Under the pieces are notes generated by a model. The model saw only the letters and a list, made by a program, of their open reading frames with translations. It was not told the DNA's origin and ran no database searches. This document shows, one piece after another, positions 22,450 to 60,879 of a stretch of DNA of 64,000 nucleotides. Location of the stretch: NCBI GenBank assembly GCA_002633005.1, contig NMRA01000022.1, forward strand, positions 867,357 to 931,356, read 5' to 3'. Both the position numbers and the translations under genes were made by a program. This stretch comes from Phoronis australis. Taxonomy: Eukaryota > Animalia > Phoronida. Within the stretch, counting starts at the first letter, position 1, and each line of letters starts with the position of its first letter.

Positions 22450-23162
22450 ATGGCTTCCTGTCCGACGGGACGAACTGAGTGGGATGTCAAAGCTGTAGGT
22501 TTGTCATTTACTCAACTTCGAAAGCGTACCACCCGATTGGGTATTAGCGAGGCAGATTGGAGCAAACTTGATGGGCTTTACAAGATTAAATCTCTGACAC
22601 TCTTCAGGCGGTATGTTACGCAGGTGTCCAAGGTATTGCTCGTAGCAGCATTGGTGTTTATCTCATGCATCACATTTATCTACTACGTGCAGTGGCCGAT
22701 ATCACGCTTGACGTTGTATGGATTCTTGAAAGTTTTTATACGGTTTATACCGCAAACCGATGACCGAACCAACTGTTTTCTACCCATGGACTTTATAACC
22801 TCAAACATTATCCGACCGCCTCTGTACTGCGATTTTTGTAAAAATGTCACATCGGTGGATCGAGTAAAAAACATTACAGCCGATCAGTTCCTTGAGAAAT
22901 ATGCTTACACATCGCGCCCTCTTCTGATCGAGGGATACCAAAAGGTGTTAACAGAGGATGGAAGACCGTTCGATTTCAACTTCATCAAGAACTTGTATGC
23001 ATCCAACAGTCCCTCAATCAAGGGCACACATGAGATTTGTGAATATCAGCCGAAGATGGGTCTCGACAACTACCCAACACTTGGTCACCTGCTTAATATG
23101 ACTGACGAGAAATTGCACGCTCACAAGAATACCAACCGGGAGTCGCTGTGGTATGTTGGCTG
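22450..23162 (+). CDS. JmjC/cupin-domain protein, exon 1 (N-terminal TM segment, Cys-rich juxtamembrane region, start of the cupin domain)
   Basis: 238-aa ORF with hydrophobic segment VLLVAALVFISCITFIYYV, RPPLYCDFC, F.EKYAYTSRPLLI (typical JmjC N-terminal motif) and WYVGW. Ends at donor TG|GTAAGC (phase 2). Confidence 0.9.
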
Positions 23163-24019
23163 GTAAGCTTCCGTTACTCTCTTCACAAGTTCCAGCTGTA
23201 TAAACCTGTAAGTATACTAGTCGAAGGGCTCGGTTTTGCACATCGACAGATTTTTACTGCATCTAAATAATTGAAACCGTATCTCGTCTGCTCAGCTATC
23301 CAAAAGAATTACAATCAATACTAGCCAACTGTTCTCTACAAATGGACTTGACAAAATTTTAATCGCGACAGGACTTTGTTTCCTATGCGGAAGGCCTAAG
23401 CTTTCCACTGAGTCAAAAACACTTCAGAATATTATAGCCCATCCAAAATTTAGTCGCTTCACTTCAGTCACAGGCTTTCTTTCAAAGACGCAAGGGAATT
23501 TCTAAATTACATTTCATAAGCTCAGTTAGTGCTTTTCTTGGTTGCACGAAATCATTTTTTCCTACTTTCATTTATAAACCGTAAACGAAAAGTACATACC
23601 ACTTTAAAAAAACATTCATATTTTCCATAAAATTGCAGGGTATTAAAAAGTGTGTAGGATCACGTGCTTCGCTATATCTCACAAACACTTGTTTTACCTT
23701 GGGATTTCGCGTATTACCGTACGCAGTCCAGTCTTATCACTAACAAAAAAGTGCCGGCTGTCGTTGAACGATGATAACAATCTCCACTCAGAAGTGTAAT
23801 TTTCCGTAGATTCCATGTGACAGTAAGGTAAACCTTGGATCCAATTTTATTTTGAATCCTATATTGTAAATTTATGCAGATACGTATTGTAAAAGACTAC
23901 AAGATGACTGACACGTCTACTCACTAAATGCTGCGAGGCAATTCGTTTATTTAGATGCAAAAATCGTGAAATTGCAGCTACCAAATAGAAAGTTGATATT
24001 CTGCGCATTGCCGTTGCAG

Positions 24020-44049: not shown

Positions 44050-45195
44050 TCAACATTGACTTGAATCGAGTGTAGTGTAAAAACGAGTTGAATCTGTCGC
44101 AACCATTGACGTCGACGAATCAGACTGCGGCGTTTTTTCCCCACAAATCATGGCCCGTATCTCTTTCCTAAATCGCTTTCCGGAAGCAAAATAAACAGCA
44201 AAGTTAATGGAATGGTTCGTGTACAGACACATCCTAGTCAAAGCTTCAAACAGCAAAAACTGGGCCAGCTCAGTCGGGTCATCTTTGTTCCATTGCGACT
44301 CTAAGAGGAACTCTAGGTGACTGGGTGTTGTTAAGCATAGAAACACCATAGCAACCACCACAGACATTATTGTCATTGAGCGCATTTCATAGACGTCACG
44401 CTGCTTTTGCAGTACTTTGTCATCATTCGAATGTGGAGATACTTTGGACACAGACATTCCGTGAAAGGAAACCTTCCCCATTTTCCTTTTGGACGTCTTT
44501 AACCGATAGACTATTCGCACGCTACATATAATCATTGTTGCAAACGGCCCGAGGGCGTACAGTCCTAAAACACAATACGGTCGTACGTACCGCCAATAAA
44601 AAAATTGTCCCTCGCTCGGATACCCACATTCTTTAGTTTTGAAAACTGTGCCATTACCGTCTATGATTTCCTGGCGCCCTCTGGCCCAAAACACGCTGAT
44701 GTTCTCGAGTGCTACGAGAAACGCGACTACTGCCACTACTTTCTTAGTTCTGGAGAGGGAACACATAGTACTGGCCCGAAAGGGATGGCAAACAGAGATG
44801 AATCGCTCCAGCGACACTGTAACCAGGGTCCATGCAGACATATCGAGCCCAAAGTACAGGAAAAAGCGATGAAACTTGCAGCACCATTCGTTGATATTTC
44901 GAATATCCCAGTCACTTAGTTCTTTGGAATAGTTGCGTGTCAGTCCCGTAAGTAGCACCAGTAAATCGGCCAAGGCAAGAACAGAAAAGCAAAATCCGAC
45001 AGAGGTTTTACGGAAGGTTTGCCGTCTAGTAACCAAAAAGCATAGAATGTTTCCAATAAAACCAAAACAAAGCAAAACTGGTGAGAACATGAGCCAAAGA
45101 TATTTTGCAACTTTACTTCCCAACACTTCTCCAGTCGTCTCGGTAACGTTTGGAATCGTGGTCGAAATGTTTCCCTCGAGTGGACTGTATTCCAT
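44050..45195 (-). CDS. Rhodopsin-class (class A) GPCR, FMRFamide/MIP-receptor-like orphan, 381 aa, single coding exon
   Basis: Seven hydrophobic segments; GN in TM1, LALADL in TM2, Cys at the top of TM3, ERF (DRY variant), CLTTP in TM6, NHSINFAVY in TM7, F(R) helix 8; N-terminal sequons NIS and NVT. A splice acceptor (tttctacag) lies 27 nt upstream of the ATG, so the exon starts at 45222. Confidence 0.95.
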   Translation of the reverse strand: MEYSPLEGNISTTIPNVTETTGEVLGSKVAKYLWLMFSPVLLCFGFIGNILCFLVTRRQTFRKTSVGFCFSVLALADLLVLLTGLTRNYSKELSDWDIRNINEWCCKFHRFFLYFGLDMSAWTLVTVSLERFISVCHPFRASTMCSLSRTKKVVAVVAFLVALENISVFWARGRQEIIDGNGTVFKTKECGYPSEGQFFYWRYVRPYCVLGLYALGPFATMIICSVRIVYRLKTSKRKMGKVSFHGMSVSKVSPHSNDDKVLQKQRDVYEMRSMTIMSVVVAMVFLCLTTPSHLEFLLESQWNKDDPTELAQFLLFEALTRMCLYTNHSINFAVYFASGKRFRKEIRAMICGEKTPQSDSSTSMVATDSTRFYTTLDSSQC

Positions 45196-49535: not shown

Positions 49536-51835
49536 ACGATCAGCGAAGTTTACTTCTGGATCTGCACGTGTGAGCTCCCTCATTACGTTACACGAATATA
49601 TTCATTTTAATTCATTTTATTTGAAGGGACAATCTCGGCGAGAAAAGTATTTTTTCAGAAATAAGCAGTGATGCGAAATCGACCCGGCTACCTATGTTAC
49701 CGCTCTGCCTTTAAGCCATATACAATGGGCTATAAAGAATAGTATTTAGCGTGTTTAAATGGTAAAGACAAAGGTCCTGATTTCAGTGAATGTTTGGCAC
49801 ACAGCGACGAGAATTGTCAACTTTTTATAAAATCACAAAACCACAGTGGACTTTCTTGTTTTATAGCCCTGGTCAAAGCCAATACCTTTCCAAAAATCAG
49901 TCATCCAACAATAGTCACAAAAAATGCGTCTTTCGAACAATAAACCCGACATAATGTTCGTTTAATATACTGTCTAATGTTCATTAACAATTAATGTCGA
50001 ATACATGTGGGTCATCGAGGACATCCCAAGATACTTTCTGATTCCTAACACTGAACCACTAGTTGACAGTTGGACGCTAAACAAACTGCGCAGAGCTACG
50101 TTTCACCACCATCACGTGAAAGTGCTATGAGTTAGCTAAAAGAGTACCCAAGGGACACCATAGACGGGTAGGAATACTCATTCTGCGGTACGTAATAAAA
50201 GAATTTTGCTATTACGAACTGTCCAAAGAAGTTAATGGGAAAAGAAATGAAGAAGTTAATGGGAAAAGAAATGAATTAGTCAGAACTGAGTTGCTCAGTC
50301 GATGAGAAAAGAACCTTCAGTTCGTTAGGCAAATTGCATTGAAGAGAAAAGAATTTTGCTAAATGAGAATTCCCATGAGCACAGTAACGGAAGAATATTA
50401 GAAACCCCGGTCAGAATTGCAGAAAGAACAGACATGTTTCAGTTTTCGCACGAAACGCGACCAGTTGGGTAGCTCCAACACCAGTATAATTCAGTTATTT
50501 TCCATTAAAGCTGATGCGTCAAGGGGAAACGCTCGTGATAAAACTGCCAGTGGCAGATCTACGTTTTCAGTAAGGGGGGAGGGGGTTAGGATTCGTGCGA
50601 ATCCGAAGCTCGTAGAGCCGAGCGGGGGGAGGTCGGGAGGGGCTTCCTCTCTCGAAACCCTCTCCCGTGTAAGATTTTTTTTGGTTTTTGTAGCTNGACA
50701 CTATACGATCAGCGAAGTTTACTTCTGGATATGCACGTGTGAGCTCCCTCATTACGTTACACGAATATATTCATTTTAATTCATTTTATTTGAAGGGACA
50801 ATCTCGGCGAGAAAAGTATTTTTTCAGAAATAAGCAGTGATGCGAAATCGACACGGCTACCTACGTTACCGCTCTGCCTTTAAGCCATATACAATGGGCT
50901 ATAAAGAATAGTATTTAGCGTGTTTAAATGGTAAAGACAAAGGTCCTGATTTCAGTGAATGTTTGGCACACGGCGACGAGAATTGTCAACTTTTTATAAA
51001 ATCACAAAAACACAGTGGACTTTCTTGTTTTATAGCTCTGGTCAAAGCCAATACATTTCCAAAAATCTGTCATCCAACAATAGTCACAAAAATGCGTCTT
51101 TCGAACAATAAACCCGACATAATGTTCGTTTAATATACTGTCTAATGTTCATTAACAATTAATGTCGAATACATGTGGGTCATCGATGACATCCCAAGAT
51201 ACTTTCTGATTCCGAACACTGAACCACTAGTTGACAGTTGGACGCTAAACAAACTGCGCAGAGCTAGGTTTCTCCACCATCACGTGAAAGTGCTATGAGT
51301 TAGCTTATAGAGTACCCAAGGGACACCATAGACGGGTAGGAATACTCATTCTGCGGTACGTAATAAAAGAATTTTGCTATTACGATCTGTCCAAAGAAGT
51401 TAATAGGAAAAGAAATGAATTAGTCAGAACTGAGTTGCTCAGTCGATGAGAAAAGAACCTTCAGTTCGTTAGGCAAATTGCATTGAAGAGAAAAGAATTT
51501 TGCTAAATGAGAATTCCCACGAGCACAGTAACGGAAGAATATTAGAAACCCCGGTCAGAATTGCAGAAAGAACAGACATGTTTCAGTTTTCGCACGAAAC
51601 GCGACCAGTTGGGTAGCTCCAACACCAGTATAATTCAGTTATTTTCCATTAAAGCTGATGCATCAAGGGTAAACGCACGTGATAAAACTGCCAGTGGCAG
51701 ATCTACGTTTTCAGTAAGGGGGGGGTTAGGATTCGTGCGAATCCGAAGCTCGTAGAGCCGAGCGGGGGGAGGTCGGGAGGGGCTTCCTCTCTCGAAACCC
51801 TCTCCCGTGTAAGATTTTTTTTGGTTTTTGTAGCT
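49536..51835 (+). repeat. Near-identical ~1.15-kb direct duplication (49536-50695 and 50705-51835) joined at a single N
   Basis: The copies differ by scattered substitutions and one short indel; N at 50696 lies exactly at the junction. Confidence 0.95.
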
Positions 51836-51942
51836 ATTTCGTTTTCCTGGCGACGTTTCTTTTAAATTTTTATTTTTGATCCTGTCTCGGGGGAGGGGGG
51901 GGGGACAAAAACCCCTGAACCCCCTTCGTAGATCGGCCTCTA
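51692..51942 (+). mobile_element. CAGTGGCAGATCT...AGATCGGCCTCTA MITE (partial duplicate at 50548-50695)
   Basis: Imperfect ~15-bp TIRs; flanks ACTGC/ACTGT; homologous to 56326-56582. Confidence 0.8.
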
Positions 51943-53751: not shown

Positions 53752-53863
53752 ATGCCGGCAAAAGATTTCGACGAAGCGAGGTGGAATGAAGATAGTCGAA
53801 TTGAATTCGTGCCTGAAGACCGAGGGTACTACGCTCTCGGAATAATCGAGGCAATTTACATAG
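53752..53863 (+). CDS. GIY-YIG domain protein, coding exon 1 (not in the ORF track)
   Basis: ATG preceded by an in-frame TAA (53740-53742). Reads MPAKDFDEARWNEDSRIEFVPEDRGYYALGIIEAIYI-G. Donor G|GTAAGC is phase 1, matching the acceptor at 58385. Confidence 0.85.
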
Positions 53864-56325
53864 GTAAGCTGGGGTGACGTTCTCGCTTCGCCCAGTAGTG
53901 TTGCGCCCATTTTGATTTTTTGATGTTAATAATATGATTATCTTGCTCTCGGTGTGTTTATGCGAACAATGTCTCATACTCTATGATTACCTTAGGTTTA
54001 TTAATACCTGTGGTATAAACCAGTGATGGCAGCTATTACCAGTGAGAGCCCAGTGCCAGTGGTCACATATTTCATGTGGTTAACTGTCGTTATTTTAATT
54101 AAACACTACCTTAAGGACTCAACCATGCATTTTGTATGTGTCTTTCCATTCCCTTAATCATGTTTCTCCCCCTTGTTGAAATAATGTCAACGCACTGTCA
54201 GCATCTGAACGATAAGTGAACCACCGAACATACCGATGCCGACTGAGTACGTTATGCAATCGGTAGACATATTTGTTTGGCTTGTTTACCAATCTGTTGT
54301 TTGACAGTGTCATTGGTACGCGTGAACATACCTGTGAGTGATCAATCGGAGATTGTTGAGGTCCATCGAACCCCAGTCCCGTACGCTTGAGTGGATATCA
54401 CGAGTATTGAAAAACATGGTTTGTCATGAATCTTCACAACATGTCAAGAGTGTTTTCCGGGGGGGGGGGTACTCGACTAAATTTTGAATGGGTGTGTTTT
54501 TTGCTGATATGTTGGAACACCCGCTCGTTTACAGAATGGACAAGATAAAACCCACCCTTTTAGACAATAAAATAGATTACTGGATATCCATGTTGCTGGG
54601 AGCTATTATAGAAAGCTCGAATTTTTCCAAAACATTACCTTCGTATAGGGGCTTGAAAGGGACATTATGGGGCTTACTGCAGAACAATTGCATTTTTGTA
54701 AATATTTTTGAATCGAAAAGACTTCTGTGGTTGCATGAAACATTCACAAATGGGGGGTCGACTAAGTTCCCAAAACTCTTTGCGTTTTTGTGTCATCATA
54801 GGTGTAAATTTTTTTTCATCATTTCGTATTTAATATGAGCTTCTCCTTGACGACTAATGACATTTCCTAACAATTTAATGTACTAAAAACTGGACGCTGA
54901 GTCCAACAAAAAATGGGATTAGTTCTTAATTTAGGGTCGTTGCAAATTTATTTTCGATAAAATTGAGAATTAAACGTAAAGTTCACTCTCTGCTTACATC
55001 AAAGCCAAACATTGACTTAGCGTAAGAAAGGACAATCGGTGTTTTCATAAGTTCCTAAATAGACAGTAGATATACCTACATAAAACACGGGATATACTTG
55101 GCACTGTTTCATGTAATCGACACTTAAAGCTGTTATCCTTAACCAGAGTTATAAAAAACAAAATCCGTTGGCTTTGTGATGTTATTACAAATCGCAGTTA
55201 TCGCTGTTGTCCGCCAGATAAGATCGATGACTATGTAAGTGCCGTTCAGCTCCGCCAGCAGAGCTTTGCACTGCAACTGCTGAGGTTGCGGGCGCGATTC
55301 CTCGTTATGGCCGACCAATTTGCTTCCCTATTTTGTCGCTTAAACCATACAAAATGACTATTTATTGGACTAAAATTAAATGAACAACTAATTGGATTGT
55401 AATGTTTTTTTTTTCCTACAAACGTAAGAGTTCCAAAGTCACAAAACGAACCCTTTCGCAGGAGCAATCATAGACACTTTTCGTAGGTAACTAGGCCTCG
55501 AGAAAGTCATGCATCTGAACGTCACGTCCCGTATGTATGTCAATAATGTTCCCTCGTAGTCAGTCTCACAACTTCATGGTTTTGATAGAATTGACCCGTT
55601 CAGTTTCAAGTTATAGAACGTGCCTCGGAGCTCTCTCATGAGGAGGTGTTAGCGGAGACGTGCTTCCAACCCATGTAGATATTTTGCAGTTTTGACTTAT
55701 AAGATTTCTTTGATATTCTCATGTGATATCGGAGGTATAGTATGTGCACTGTCGGGTATCCATGACTCGGTACCCATGTACCCCACAGTTGCCCAGGTAT
55801 TGCGTTGGTGTGGATATTGACAGTTCGACCTCTAGCACCGACTGAATGTACAATTATTTTCTAATTAAGCAGTCCTATTTAAAGTAACATTATTGCCGAG
55901 AAAAGTGGTTCTCTGTAATCAGCCACAATTGAATCGACAGCCCCCACGGGCGCAGTCTAGGCCCTACACTACGAACATCATAATATTTAAGGGGTTGGCC
56001 CGGCTTTGAAATCAGTGAATGTCTGACAAATAACGCCAAGGATTACCAATTTGTAATAAAACCACAAAAATGAGCCAATTTTGGATTTTTATAGAAAGCT
56101 ATCTATCCCACCCTACACTAATCACAAACGCGTTTTTGGGGCGATAAAACCGCAAGTTCTTGAAATCCTTTCAAGTTTAACCGAATGAAATTGTAGATGC
56201 CATTTTCATGCTTTAAAGCCTGACAATAAATTGTTTTTTTAACATGAAATTCTGAGAACGCAAGCTACTGGCGACTTGATATTTCGTATTCCATCCAAAC
56301 GTACTTACTCTCAAAGCACACCTAG

Positions 56326-56582
56326 CAGTGGCAGATCTAAGTTTTCAGTAAGGAGAGGGGTGGTTAGGATTCGTACGAATCCGAGGCGCGTAGCGCCGAG
56401 CACTGGGAAGGTCTCGAGGGGTGTTTCCCTTTCCCGTGTAAATTTTTTTTTTGTTTTTAGTAGCTGACTTCGTTTTCCTGGCGACATTTTTTCTTAATTT
56501 TTATTATTGACCCTGTCCCGATGGGGGGGGGGGTTGAACCCCCTGAANAACCCCCTGAACCCTCCCCGTAGATCCGCCTCTA
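56326..56582 (+). mobile_element. MITE in the intron of the GIY-YIG gene, TSD CCTAG
   Basis: Same family as 51692-51942; CCTAG on both sides. Confidence 0.8.
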
Positions 56583-56971
56583 CCTAGCCTCAGACATTAC
56601 AATCAACCAGTAACAGACGTCAGCCATAAAAGTCCCTCCCAAGCGTTAATATTTTCGACGGACGACATCTTTGTTGTGGAAAGGAAAACCCTAAACGATA
56701 CTCCGCTCGGCTATAGACCATAAGTATGTATGCAAAATGCCGTGACTCACGCTCCAAAGAAACGTAGATGTTCAAATTTGCCAAAATTGTCGAAAACCAA
56801 AAGCCTTGAAATTGGCCAGTAAAGGTAAAGTTTACACTTACCTGTAATTTAAGTCTTTTCAAATACACTGTGCAAACAAATCACCATGAAGTTGTCATGC
56901 AATTCTTATTGTGTTTATACCACTGACTTCTGATACACCCGTGAGCGTTTCATTTCCAGCTATTGTTGACT

Positions 56972-57116
56972 ATATATGAAAATAAAATAACAGTAATGGA
57001 TCGACTGAAATGTTCCGATGTAATCGAATCCTTTTTCAACAGAAACAAAATACAAGGAAAAAATTGATTATAACCGAAAATTTCAGTTGATCCTTTGTTG
57101 TTTTATTTTCATATAT
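56972..57116. repeat. Imperfect inverted repeat with ~60-bp arms (foldback)
   Basis: atatatgaaaataaaataac...ggatcgactgaaat pairs with atttcagttgatcc...gttgttttattttcatatat. Confidence 0.75.
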
Positions 57117-58384
57117 TCTACGTTTCGTCAAGCAGTATTATCCTTCAGGGATTCTGGGTCACCTCGTTTAGTTTCAGATTTATTTTCTATTGTGTTCATT
57201 TTTTGATTTTACTATGAGAAAAAATATTAAAAACACAAACACAGTCGGGGAAACATGTTGACGTAATGATATTCTAATTACGATTTCAAGAGGATTCATT
57301 GTGGGGCAGTTTGGATGTTTCATGTCGTGGGATTTCAGTCACATTTGAAAAATACTGTAAATATATAGACGCTGAGGTTGGCCAGTAATGAAATATTGAA
57401 AAACACACATTGAACTATTGACGATGTAATTACGAGAAATCATGAAATGCCCCAATCTCATTTACAACAATTAACTTGCATACATTTATCACGTGTCATT
57501 AGTCAAACAAGTAATGGCATGCGTAGGTACAATGTACTAAGCTTTGCCGTTAAACGTCCTGAATGAGGTCACACCGGGTTAATGTGACTCCATTTACGAG
57601 GGACACTGTCTGACCTGCGCTCTTTGCACAAACCGTATTTTTCTATAAGGTTTCACTAATTCCACTCTAAGGTTTATCGTGGGGGATCCAAATCCATCGA
57701 GATCAACATTTTGTTGGACATCCAGCACACATTGATTTACGATCCATTCCGTATAAATGTAGTTTCGCTCAAAGTTTATAAATTTGAAAACAGCTTTGTT
57801 TTCAGTGATTACCGTAAATAAATATCACAGCTTATAATTATTCTTAAAGCTATATTTCGCTCCTGTTTATCTGGCTAAATACGAAAACAAAGTAGGCCTT
57901 TTATTCTCATGAAATCGGTCTTACAGTTTACCTCAACTTAAAAGGTTTAATTTCCTTTACAAACTAAAGTCAGAGAAAATGCGTACATGCGTCATTTTCA
58001 AATTCGCAATTTCAGGTTTGGCCAACCCGAGAAACGTTTACTGGGGTCGCAGATGGTTTCGATGTTGTTGGTTACGGATATAGAATCCTATCGCGATAAA
58101 GAATATTACGGGACCGATTCTATGACTGGTTTTGTTTGTTATTAATATAAAATCCTATTACGGTCAAGAGTTAGGAGACTGATTTTATGAGAGAGTAAAA
58201 GGCTGCGTAATGTAGTTTTGAACAGCTTTTTTCATGAATCAGAAAAATTCTGAAAATAATTTCCAGAAATTGTTTCTTATTTGTTTTTGAAGCAATATTT
58301 CCATTGTAACCTTGTAGGGTTTGAATTACACTTCAAGGACCTTATTTTTAAAATATATTCTCAATTTTCCCGTTGCTGTTACAG

Positions 58385-60879
58385 GAACCAACCCTCCACG
58401 ACTATGTGATACCACCATTCGCGAGAGGGTGCGTAGTCATTTTACCAACAAAGACCAGCAGCGAATAAGTCGATACCTGTCTTCTCTTGAGTCATGGGAG
58501 AACATCCGAATATGGTACTTCGATACCCCAAGACCGTGTATCGAAGAGAGGCGCTTAGTAACCGAGTACAAACTGATTCACAAGGGTTATATGCCCGAGT
58601 TTAACGAACTCCGTGTCTGGAACCCGTGCAAGTGTCCCGAGTGTTGCAGTATTCCACCGACACCGATGGCTCCACACTTGACCACGTGGCAATGGAAGAG
58701 AGTGCCTCAATGCGAGGCCTCTACAGACGGACAATTCAACTATGAAATGATTGACCCACGACGAATACCTAACAAGAAGGGTATATATGCAATTGGTAGA
58801 GTGATTCTCTTCAGAAGCGAGCTGACACAAAATTTAAAACAGAGCATGCAGGAGCATTTGGCCGGTCTTCCTGGAAGCATTGTGCGTATATGGTGGCGCC
58901 GCGCAAACCCGGAAATAGAACGCCCCCTGCAGCAAGTTATTTCTAGAATGACTGACAGTCGTCACTCTTTGCGTATTTCTACAATTAGCCTTAATAGTAA
59001 TAGACCTAACCAGAAAACTAGTGTCCAAAAGAACCAACCGAAAACAAAGCCTGATCATGTTCGTCCCCCGGATGACGTGTTAACAATGTCGCGTAGTTCT
59101 TCAGTGTCATCTGTCGACAGACGGCGTCAGAATAGCATGCCGGTGCGGCTGAAGGGAGGCCGGGTAGTCCAGACTGAAGATTCACATCTGCGAGGTCGCC
59201 AAAACAGTATGCCGATTCGCCAACGAGGTCGCCGAGCACAGAGAGCTCAATCGGAGTCACGGCTGAAAGACGTTCATCACAGCGAAGACGACCTTGACGT
59301 GAAAAAATCTAGAACAATGTCTGAACGATCGCTACCTGATAAGAAGCCATCACTTGCAAATGATCTCGAAGTCACAAGCCAGCCGAGTAGGCATTCTAGT
59401 ACGAAAACCGAGTCTGGTGAAAGCAGTGACTTTGGCCAGCCGAGTCTATCGCACCTGGCAAAGACTGAGTTGGAGACAATAAACGTGGCATCGCTTTTGA
59501 GACCTTCGTCGAGTGATAATACTGATTTCCAATCTGCGACCACGGTGCATAAACGAGACGAATTTATTTCCGAGTTGAAATCAGCGCAGCGCAGAATTCT
59601 TGGAAATAGTGTGTTAGACAGTGAACAGTCTGAAACTGACGAGGTTTTCGTTACAACGCCAAACGTAGTAGACAACGAAATGCCATCAACGTCCCGTGGT
59701 TCAGTGTCACGGGTGCCTGCTTCGCTCCCACGTGGCAAATCTTTTGACCACACATCACCGTTAAACGTCGATGACAAGAAAACCTTGACGTCGTATGATC
59801 CATTGTTGCACACCACTGCGCCACTGGTTCATAACAAAGAGCTCCACCAGTCGGCGAACGTTAAAGTCCGTAATGAAAATTTGTTGACGTCACACGAATC
59901 ACAGCTAAAAGATTCGCCCCCACCGTTGCCCGTTAAGGGTATCAAACCGAGCGTGGCAGTCAACGTGTTGCCAATCCCTGATAGAAAGCCCCTAGCACCA
60001 GAAAGGCCACCCAAGAAACCAGACAGTGTGAAACCAAATATGATGACAACTGGGAACGCGACATTGACAGTGAAACAAACGCTAAATGACTCTGTTGAAT
60101 CCGATCCCCATAACAAAACAAACGTAGCTGCACCAGCAAATGGCAGAGTTCTTGGTCGCCGAACTTTGATAAAGGTTGCTGCAAACGATCCTGGAAAAAA
60201 TGAAAAGACTGTTTCACCAAGCAGACCGGACACACCGGATTCAGTTCAGTCGGACCACAGGCCGGCCACACCGGTCTCTAAAGTTTCAGACCATTCGTCG
60301 AAAACGTCGGGAAAAGGAAATAAGCCGAAGAAGTCAAACAAAAAAGAACCGGACCGTGGGAAACAAAGATCACAATCTTTGCGAGATCCCAAACGGCCTA
60401 AGCCGATCCATCCTGATAGGTTTGATCGTCAAAGCCTTGCTTCAGATGATGATCACGGGAATAGAATTATGGTTCAATATAAAAACAAGAAGACAGGCAG
60501 AATTGAAACTGTTGACATAACCGATGTGCAGTATCGTAAGCGAGCTATTTTAGAAAGGCGAGAAGCGGAGAAGCGTGCTTTGGAAAGAAAAGAAGCAGAG
60601 AAACGTGAAGCCATTGAGCGGCGGAAGGAGGCCATTGCAGCAGCGAAAGAACGCGAACGAGAGGTGCAGTTAGCGAAACGGGCGGAACTGGAGAGAGCAA
60701 AGTCATTAAAAGAGGCGAGAGCGAAAGAGCAGAGCGAAGCTAAACGACAACTCGTTGAGCGCAAGAAATCTATGAAAAAGTCGAAGGATTCTGAAAAGTC
60801 AAAACCCCAGCCATTGCCGTCTAACGAGGGCTACGAGCTGAAAGCAACTCGCAGTGACAAAGATTGTGTTATTTCGTAG
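58385..60879 (+). CDS. GIY-YIG domain protein, coding exon 2: rest of the nuclease domain, degenerate second copy, disordered region, charged helix, CaaX
   Basis: Uninterrupted 2.5-kb ORF. Acceptor gttacag|GA completes the Gly of YIG. Contains IRERVRSHF, EERRL and PEFN, a second IPNKKGIYAIG motif, and ends CVIS*. Confidence 0.9.

Follow-up and report, generated by a model that had tools for sequence, protein, structure and literature searches.

A spliced gene of Phoronis australis with two tandem GIY-YIG repeats, one degenerate, and a possible strand swap between them

Gene structure, expression and surroundings

Within the analyzed window, a 64,000-nucleotide stretch of Phoronis australis DNA, a gene on the plus strand was found whose spliced product of 868 amino acids is encoded by positions 53752–53863 (exon A) and 58385–60879 (exon B). 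Exon A covers residues 1–37 and the first base of the Gly38 codon, and was defined by its ATG, which has an in-frame stop four codons upstream, by RNA coverage and by profile alignment. The intervening intron (53864–58384, +) is a phase-1 GT..AG intron of 4,521 nt, and its splice joint was confirmed by one RNA contig (X1) and by 4, 2 and 2 reads in three RNA runs (X2, X3 and X4), these counts coming from about a fifth of each run. RNA coverage across exon B was one-stranded, and the long plus-strand frame of this exon ends at 60879.

The predicted protein consists of a first GIY-YIG repeat (D1, residues ~10–112), a Cys/Pro linker, a second repeat (D2, residues ~136–229), a polar region of about 520 residues, a helical charged segment and a CaaX-type end. 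D1 is split by the intron. Its N-terminal segment lies in exon A, with the first conserved block at 53809–53841, about 4.5 kb upstream of the exon that contains D2, the GIY-strand Tyr27 at 53830–53832, a hairpin or hinge from Gly30 to Ile35 (53839–53856) and the YIG Tyr36 at 53857–53859; the intron falls within the codon of the YIG glycine, Gly38, which is thus formed across the RNA-confirmed splice. The D1 body (58385–58608, +), placed by profile columns, contains Arg52 (58426–58428), His56 (58438–58440), Glu92 (58546–58548), Asn111 (58603–58605) and the linker strand, and matches UvrC at E 0.11. Between the repeats lies a linker (58627–58677, +) with a proline-rich stretch and a cluster of four cysteines within seven residues (residues 119–125, 58627–58647) just after the catalytic Asn of D1, which could possibly be a metal site or a palmitoylation patch. 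D2 was delimited by profiles, ESM Atlas and AlphaFold2 to 58678–58959 (+), and starts about 80 nt before position 58765, where an earlier first-pass annotation had placed it. It includes a GIY strand, Gly170–Gly175 (58780–58797), and a hairpin or hinge, Gly175–Leu179 (58795–58809), and has no intron at the position matching that of D1.

Downstream of D2, a long polar Ser/Pro-rich region with two RQNS repeats and PxxP motifs (58960–60534, +) has no Pfam match and is likely disordered, judging by its composition. It is followed by a Glu/Lys/Arg/Ala-rich stretch with a basic cluster at its end (60535–60768, +), which probably forms a long charged helix or a coiled coil, and the frame closes with the CaaX-type motif CVIS and the stop codon (60865–60879, +), the last four residues fitting Cys-aliphatic-aliphatic-X. 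CaaX is a prenylation motif, and prenylation of this tail is predicted. Among the differences listed between the tail and X1, 15 are synonymous and 16 nonsynonymous, consistent with a constrained protein-coding gene. At position 60015, X1 carries a one-base insertion in an A-run of the coding frame that is absent from the X2 and X3 reads, and reflects either an error in the homopolymer or an allele with a frameshift.

Just upstream of the gene, positions 49536–51835 hold a tandem duplication of about 1.15 kb with 98–99% identity and an N at 50696, which could have arisen by recent duplication or from two alleles that the assembly placed one after the other. A short interspersed repeat that is abundant among RNA reads originating elsewhere has copies at 50548–50630, 51688–51902 and 56326–56581, one of them inside the intron of the gene. 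Further upstream lie a single-exon rhodopsin-family GPCR gene of 381 aa (44050–45195, −; Pfam 7tm_1, E 1e-25), which had no exact match in the protein collection, and a 238-aa frame (22450–23166, +) with a hydrophobic segment and Cys motifs, which has no Pfam match and which we take to resemble C6orf89/BRAP-like proteins.

D2 is recognized as a GIY-YIG-derived repeat through its first half

The first-pass annotation had described 58765–58947 as a second, catalytically eroded GIY-YIG copy that corresponds block by block to D1. Translated in frame on the plus strand, these positions do give the D2 stretch described there. Compared directly, D1 and D2 gave a local alignment score of 40, a value that 82 of 5,000 shuffles and, among 2,550 unrelated six-frame windows, at least 15 attained as well, and their pairwise similarity alone is therefore marginal. 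In ESM Atlas, D2 alone scored 0.93 to GIY-YIG/DUF7508 clusters, with all ten best family hits in one clan, and DUF7508 (PF24348), a small prokaryotic GIY-YIG-type family that proved the best-fitting one for both repeats, was picked for profile comparison after this result had pointed there. With a profile of 32 prokaryotic DUF7508 domains, drawn from genome loci and containing no rows from the window, D1 scored 18.3 bits and D2 12.3 bits (0 of 2,000 shuffles for each), and the top four among 3,642 six-frame pieces of the window were all pieces of D1 and D2.

A larger profile agreed, giving 19.7 bits for D1 and 10.9 bits for D2. Its 69 members were obtained by reducing to <70% identity the 32 loci domains together with the 120 best-scoring of 153 proteins that a profile search, with three window rows in its query, had retrieved; this sample is biased, one archaeal phylum and one fused clade being over-represented. 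In hhalign, D1 and D2 matched the family at E 1.8e-06 and 7e-05, respectively. The signal of D2 lies in its first half, the hairpin and the Arg helix, which scored 13.6 bits (0 of 2,000 shuffles) compared with 6.9 bits for the first half of D1, while its second half was within chance (−2.4 bits, 678 of 2,000 shuffles). MAFFT trials did not agree on how the last block should be registered, and the hydrophobic pattern of D2 was kept. These profile comparisons confirm D2 as a real GIY-YIG-derived second copy, with homology demonstrated for the first half only. Pfam, PHROGs and NCBIfam gave no GIY-YIG match for D2, and the 26-bit curated cut-off of Pfam DUF7508 was reached neither by D2 nor by either of the separate exon pieces of D1.

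The catalytic residues of D2 are largely lost

According to the part of the Hpy188I study available (PMC3045582), the Tyr of the GIY motif acts as the general base, aided by a helper Tyr or His and the YIG Tyr, the YIG Gly is needed to leave room, the helix Arg is invariant and a Glu binds the metal; the C-terminal Asn is a residue of the UvrC lineage, according to the available part of PMC1564403. D1 keeps the full set in the matching profile columns, namely Tyr27, Tyr36, Gly38, Arg52, His56, Glu92 and Asn111, and we infer that D1 is a putative single-metal nuclease of the UvrC/Hpy188I type, with nicking or cutting of nucleic acid as its presumed activity.

In D2, the YIG positions are taken by Phe180 and Ser182, with neither Tyr nor Gly in either register, Ser191 stands at the Arg column, and the C-terminal Asn of the PxxN motif is missing. 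The losses of YIG, of the catalytic Arg and of PxxN reported by the first-pass annotation were thus borne out by the profile columns, and without these residues the catalytic site of D2 itself is very likely dead, in line with the proposal of a dead second GIY-YIG body. Two features that had escaped that annotation are retained, the GIY Tyr172 (58786–58788) and the helix His195. Glu216 fits the metal-binding Glu in one register only, the helix alignments being unstable. The charge of the repeats differs, with 12 K/R against 8 D/E in D2 and 16 against 17 in D1. Further, the Arg is missing in 55 of the 69 DUF7508 relatives of our biased sample, and a dead copy alone, as read from such residues, is ordinary in this family.

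Origin of the repeats and their relatives

Both repeats carry an RIW motif in the linker strand and end the GIY strand with Tyr-Ala-[ILV]-Gly, and neither feature was found in any of 152 relatives. These two features, the short hairpins common to D1 and D2 and the adjacency of the repeats favour an internal duplication, which we estimate to be the probable and simplest origin. Other observations do not single out D1 as the closest relative of D2. D2 is identical to D1 at 12 of 59 positions, compared with a mean of 18.5% for prokaryotic members, the best of which reaches 16 of 59 (27%), and the first half of D2 is matched by 29 of the 69 relatives at least as well as by D1. In a tree with 42 of the 69 relatives, in which the second half of D2 was registered by hand, D1 and D2 stood on long branches and did not group, and their grouping was not rejected (p-AU 0.22). 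The internal duplication claimed by the first-pass annotation is hence favoured by the features restricted to the two repeats, and neither by overall identity nor by the tree. Because the intron in the YIG Gly codon of D1 is absent from D2, a duplication would have predated the intron or been followed by its loss from one copy. No paralogue was found in the reads placed at 80% likeness.

D1 is at most 35% identical to a Thermococcus DUF7508 member. Gene transfer from prokaryotes is possible, and is not established, because the searches were too weak to exclude animal relatives. Word-index searches for orthologues retrieved none among 153 candidates of 456–1,453 aa and 21 candidates of 108–347 aa. 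A phmmer search of 1.84 billion representatives gave no orthologue, its sole match, to a PKD-repeat protein, being rejected as spurious. None of 83 pattern matches in metagenome contigs was confirmed as an orthologue, no relative was found in phages, and two plasmid matches were due to chance. Since the queries lacked exon A and also missed the prokaryotic relatives, and since the neighbouring GPCR is itself absent from the collection, these blanks do not indicate that animal relatives are absent.

Among the prokaryotic relatives, two Arg-less archaeal DUF7508 clades were seen. Members of one (L051 and L054–L058, open frames of 837–851 aa) form the C-terminal tails of large proteins, some relatives of which are named ferredoxin or formate dehydrogenase beta, and members of the other (L059–L075) are stand-alone proteins of about 100 aa. 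No literature naming DUF7508 was found in the searched collection, outside of which most subscription papers lie.

Predicted fold of D2 and its packing on D1

With single-sequence input (exon B residues 39–236), AlphaFold2 was uninformative (pLDDT 35). With D2 and a family alignment (A4), it returned a strand-strand-helix-strand-helix fold (pLDDT 57.6, pTM 0.41) whose hairpin is closed by the two-residue turn Gly175-Arg176. Disorder of this region, which the first-pass annotation had named as an observation that would count against a second domain, was not predicted; the model is partly circular, A4 having been chosen after a preview of 27 MAFFT variants, and its last helix is still shifted. 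VIA-align placed four GIY-YIG chains within the top 50 of 48,161, namely 2lwf (Z 3.3, rmsd 4.2, 78 aligned), 2wsh (Z 3.2, 3.7, 85), 1ycz (Z 3.0, 3.3, 72) and 1ln0 (Z 2.3, 4.1, 61), with unrelated chains scoring up to Z 4.1. Foldseek gave no match to the D2 model at E up to 0.001, which is not evidence against the fold.

The packing of D2 on D1 was predicted in a three-chain ESMFold2 job, in which D1 was given as its two exon pieces together with D2, Gly38 and the linker were absent and no alignments were used, a setting unlike the calibration set. The three-chain score was 0.72, compared with 0.00 for the best of three controls. Among microbial pairs, 51 of 78 solved ones attain the mark, as against 2 of 108 mismatched ones, and for eukaryotic pairs the corresponding counts are 39 of 65 and 2 of 126. 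The runs had at least 62% of contacts in common, with a partner pLDDT of at least 56. The pLDDT of the D1 pieces was 64–77 with D2 and 46–51 with unrelated partners, and that of D2 was 56–64 with D1 and 37 when the D1 body was replaced.

In this model, read from contact lists rather than coordinates, the GIY strand of D2 is predicted to lie in the sheet of D1 between Ile35-Tyr36 and Ile78–Phe83. The lowest-error pairs are Ile174-Tyr36, Ile174-Ile80, Tyr172-Tyr82 and Tyr172-Ile49, which would run the strand antiparallel to the linker strand of D1 (Ile174-Ile80 and Tyr172-Tyr82) and to its YIG strand (Ile174-Tyr36), with Tyr172 contacting Ile49 of the Arg helix. The D2 strand is thus predicted to occupy, in canonical register, the slot of a domain's own GIY strand. 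D1 residues 24–37 also take part in the interface, as do the Arg-helix face (191–192 and 195–196) and the linker strand (204–213) of D2, from which we infer that the swap would be reciprocal. If Gly30 is treated as a bulge, as in our own construction, Tyr172 comes opposite Gly38, and Tyr27 opposite Ser182. The first-pass annotation had pictured an intramolecular pseudo-dimer whose dead domain binds substrate or inhibits the active one; the packing of D1 and D2 agrees with such a pseudo-dimer in one ESMFold2 model, which points to a D2 that would supply the GIY strand of the active site instead.

Sequence signs pointing in the same direction were found in the hinges. Every one of the 69 relatives has a Gly-to-Tyr spacing of 12 (23 members) or 13 (46 members) in its hairpin, and a spacing of 12 or 13 also holds for each of the 147 relatives, among the 152, that were readable by pattern, compared with 11 in D1 and 10 in D2. 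The hinges are also beta-prone, the propensity of the D1 hinge, by Chou-Fasman values, being reached by 2 of the 69 relatives and that of the D2 hinge by none. Further, a profile of the 14 Arg-keeping relatives scored the swapped pairing at 21.1 bits and native D1 at 16.9 bits, while two broader profiles did not separate them (18.9 versus 18.4 and 20.2 versus 20.0 bits). At the second GIY position, 67 of the 69 relatives have Val, where D1 has Tyr and D2 has Ile. The swap is thereby suggested by one model and two partly independent sequence signs.

Several points weigh on the other side. Tyr27 is intact, so that unswapped D1 is complete on paper, and the hairpin of D2 can be closed by the Gly175-Arg176 turn of the AlphaFold2 model. 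Splitting D1 into two pieces for modelling may have produced the swap as an artefact; intertwining raises the ESMFold2 score, and when a chain is cut and its repeats are homologous, the model may be drawn into a swap or may score well through resemblance to known folds, which lies beyond the reach of the controls.

Interpretation and alternatives

The gene structure, its expression, the homology of the first half of D2, the residue losses and the short hinges are direct observations. The reading that we tentatively prefer, with a probability of roughly 0.45, is a pseudo-dimer formed by strand swapping, with a single active site composed of parts of both repeats. The tandem GIY-YIG repeats, probably the products of a duplication, would fold as one strand-swapped unit, in which D2 would lend its GIY strand with Tyr172 to the site formed by Tyr36, Gly38, Arg52, His56, Glu92 and Asn111 of D1, and the GIY strand of D1 with Tyr27 would in return complete the dead body of D2. 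The active unit would then be a circularly permuted domain nested within the dead one, and D2 would be an obligate folding partner that donates the strand of the general base rather than an inhibitor. The one site would work with a single metal, as in the UvrC/Hpy188I type, to nick or cut nucleic acid, while the tail would act as a flexible tether and its predicted prenyl group would anchor the protein to a membrane. A fuller version of this reading, to which we lean with more reserve, is a natural and natively tandem domain-swapped nuclease that folds only intertwined and takes its general-base Tyr from the 'dead' repeat, a frozen circular-permutation intermediate in a prenylated animal protein, the closest relatives detected being DUF7508 domains of prokaryotes.

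Alternatively, the repeats could fold independently with closed hairpins, D2 being a dead accessory that adds nucleic-acid or protein binding. We consider this unlikely, though it survives best among the alternatives: it agrees with the full catalytic set of D1, Tyr27 included, with the basic character of D2, with the beta-beta-alpha-beta-alpha fold that AlphaFold2 gave for D2 alone and with the commonness, in our biased sample, of Arg-less DUF7508 domains, many of which are tails of larger proteins. However, D2 alone reached a pLDDT of just 57.6 despite the family alignment and Z scores of only 2.3–3.3 to GIY-YIG chains, and independent folding leaves unexplained both the short, beta-prone hinges of the two repeats and the swapped register of the ESMFold2 model.

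A reading of D2 as the decaying remnant of a duplication or fusion, without any present function, seems improbable. Its second half is within chance, as decay would have it, and its low polymorphism (1 of 599 sites, among the differences listed) is indistinguishable from that of the neighbouring disordered stretch (2 of 587, p 0.62), but the first half of D2 fits the family better than that of D1 despite an identity of about 20% between them, and the hydrophobic pattern has been kept. We regard as quite improbable that D2 packs on D1 to autoinhibit it until a signal releases the site, since the modelled D2, although indeed packed on D1, fills the GIY slot with a Tyr in the catalytic position, which would complete the site rather than block it; damping of a GIY-YIG domain within its own chain is described, in the available parts of the sources, for AtGRXS16 (PMC5890173) and At-HIGLE (PMC9071465). 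Chance resemblance of a region not derived from GIY-YIG appears highly improbable, for the marginal pairwise score, the blank Pfam, PHROG and NCBIfam results and the choice of the profile family after the Atlas result stand against none of 2,000 shuffles with two profiles, the top ranks among the window pieces, the concordant Atlas hits and the hhalign match.

Comparison with known systems

Each DUF7508 member encountered either stands as a single domain or forms the tail of another protein, and the hairpin spacing is 12–13, in contrast to the spliced eukaryotic gene described here, with its two short-hinged repeats, long tail and CaaX motif. Eukaryotic multi-part proteins with a GIY-YIG domain include ANKLE1, SLX1, the Penelope endonuclease (PMC1564403) and AtGRXS16, which, unlike this protein, are not described with two repeats in the parts of the sources available. 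The AtGRXS16 structure 2lwf was found by the family profile at E 0.0013, and Pfam detected no family in the exon A and B products, which means none of the ankyrin, LEM, RING, reverse transcriptase and glutaredoxin domains that accompany GIY-YIG in those proteins. By titles and abstract openings, the literature yielded neither this two-repeat architecture nor, among papers on GIY-YIG and CaaX, a GIY-YIG protein with a CaaX-type tail, and no paper joining GIY-YIG with circular permutation and domain swapping was found in the searched collection, which lacks most subscription papers.

Among solved nucleases, UvrC's N-terminal GIY-YIG domain (1ycz and 1yd6, the former found by the family profile at E 5e-04) has one closed hairpin, unlike the swap predicted for D1 and D2. 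D1 has every residue to which the available part of the Hpy188I study assigns a role in the mechanism (GIY Tyr, YIG Tyr and Gly, Arg, His and Glu), and Hpy188I itself swaps a glutamate helix between two chains (PMC3045582), whereas here a GIY strand would be exchanged within one chain. The predicted layout is that of a tandem domain swap, in which a central permutant, here the C-terminal part of D1, the linker and the N-terminal part of D2, is combined with a terminal domain through hinge loops (PMC6863430). As in tandem swaps, the hinge loops of the two repeats are unusual in length and make-up. Natively intertwined repeats are known in other folds, such as the glyoxalase/VOC and CBS pairs. 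Tandem swaps have been treated as misfolds of similar domains, with none solved as of 2019 (PMC6863430), whereas the present repeats have an identity of about 20% and would be swapped in their native state.

If no swap occurs, the protein would still represent an undescribed eukaryotic GIY-YIG architecture, an active and a dead repeat with a long tail and a CaaX motif, although its interest would be modest, given how often dead DUF7508 domains occur in prokaryotes. If the swap is true, a domain scored as dead by its motifs would hold part of the active site, a warning against scoring such proteins repeat by repeat, and the protein would both allow a direct test of circular-permutant origin and provide a stable natural example of a tandem swap, for which a solved structure was lacking in 2019 (PMC6863430).
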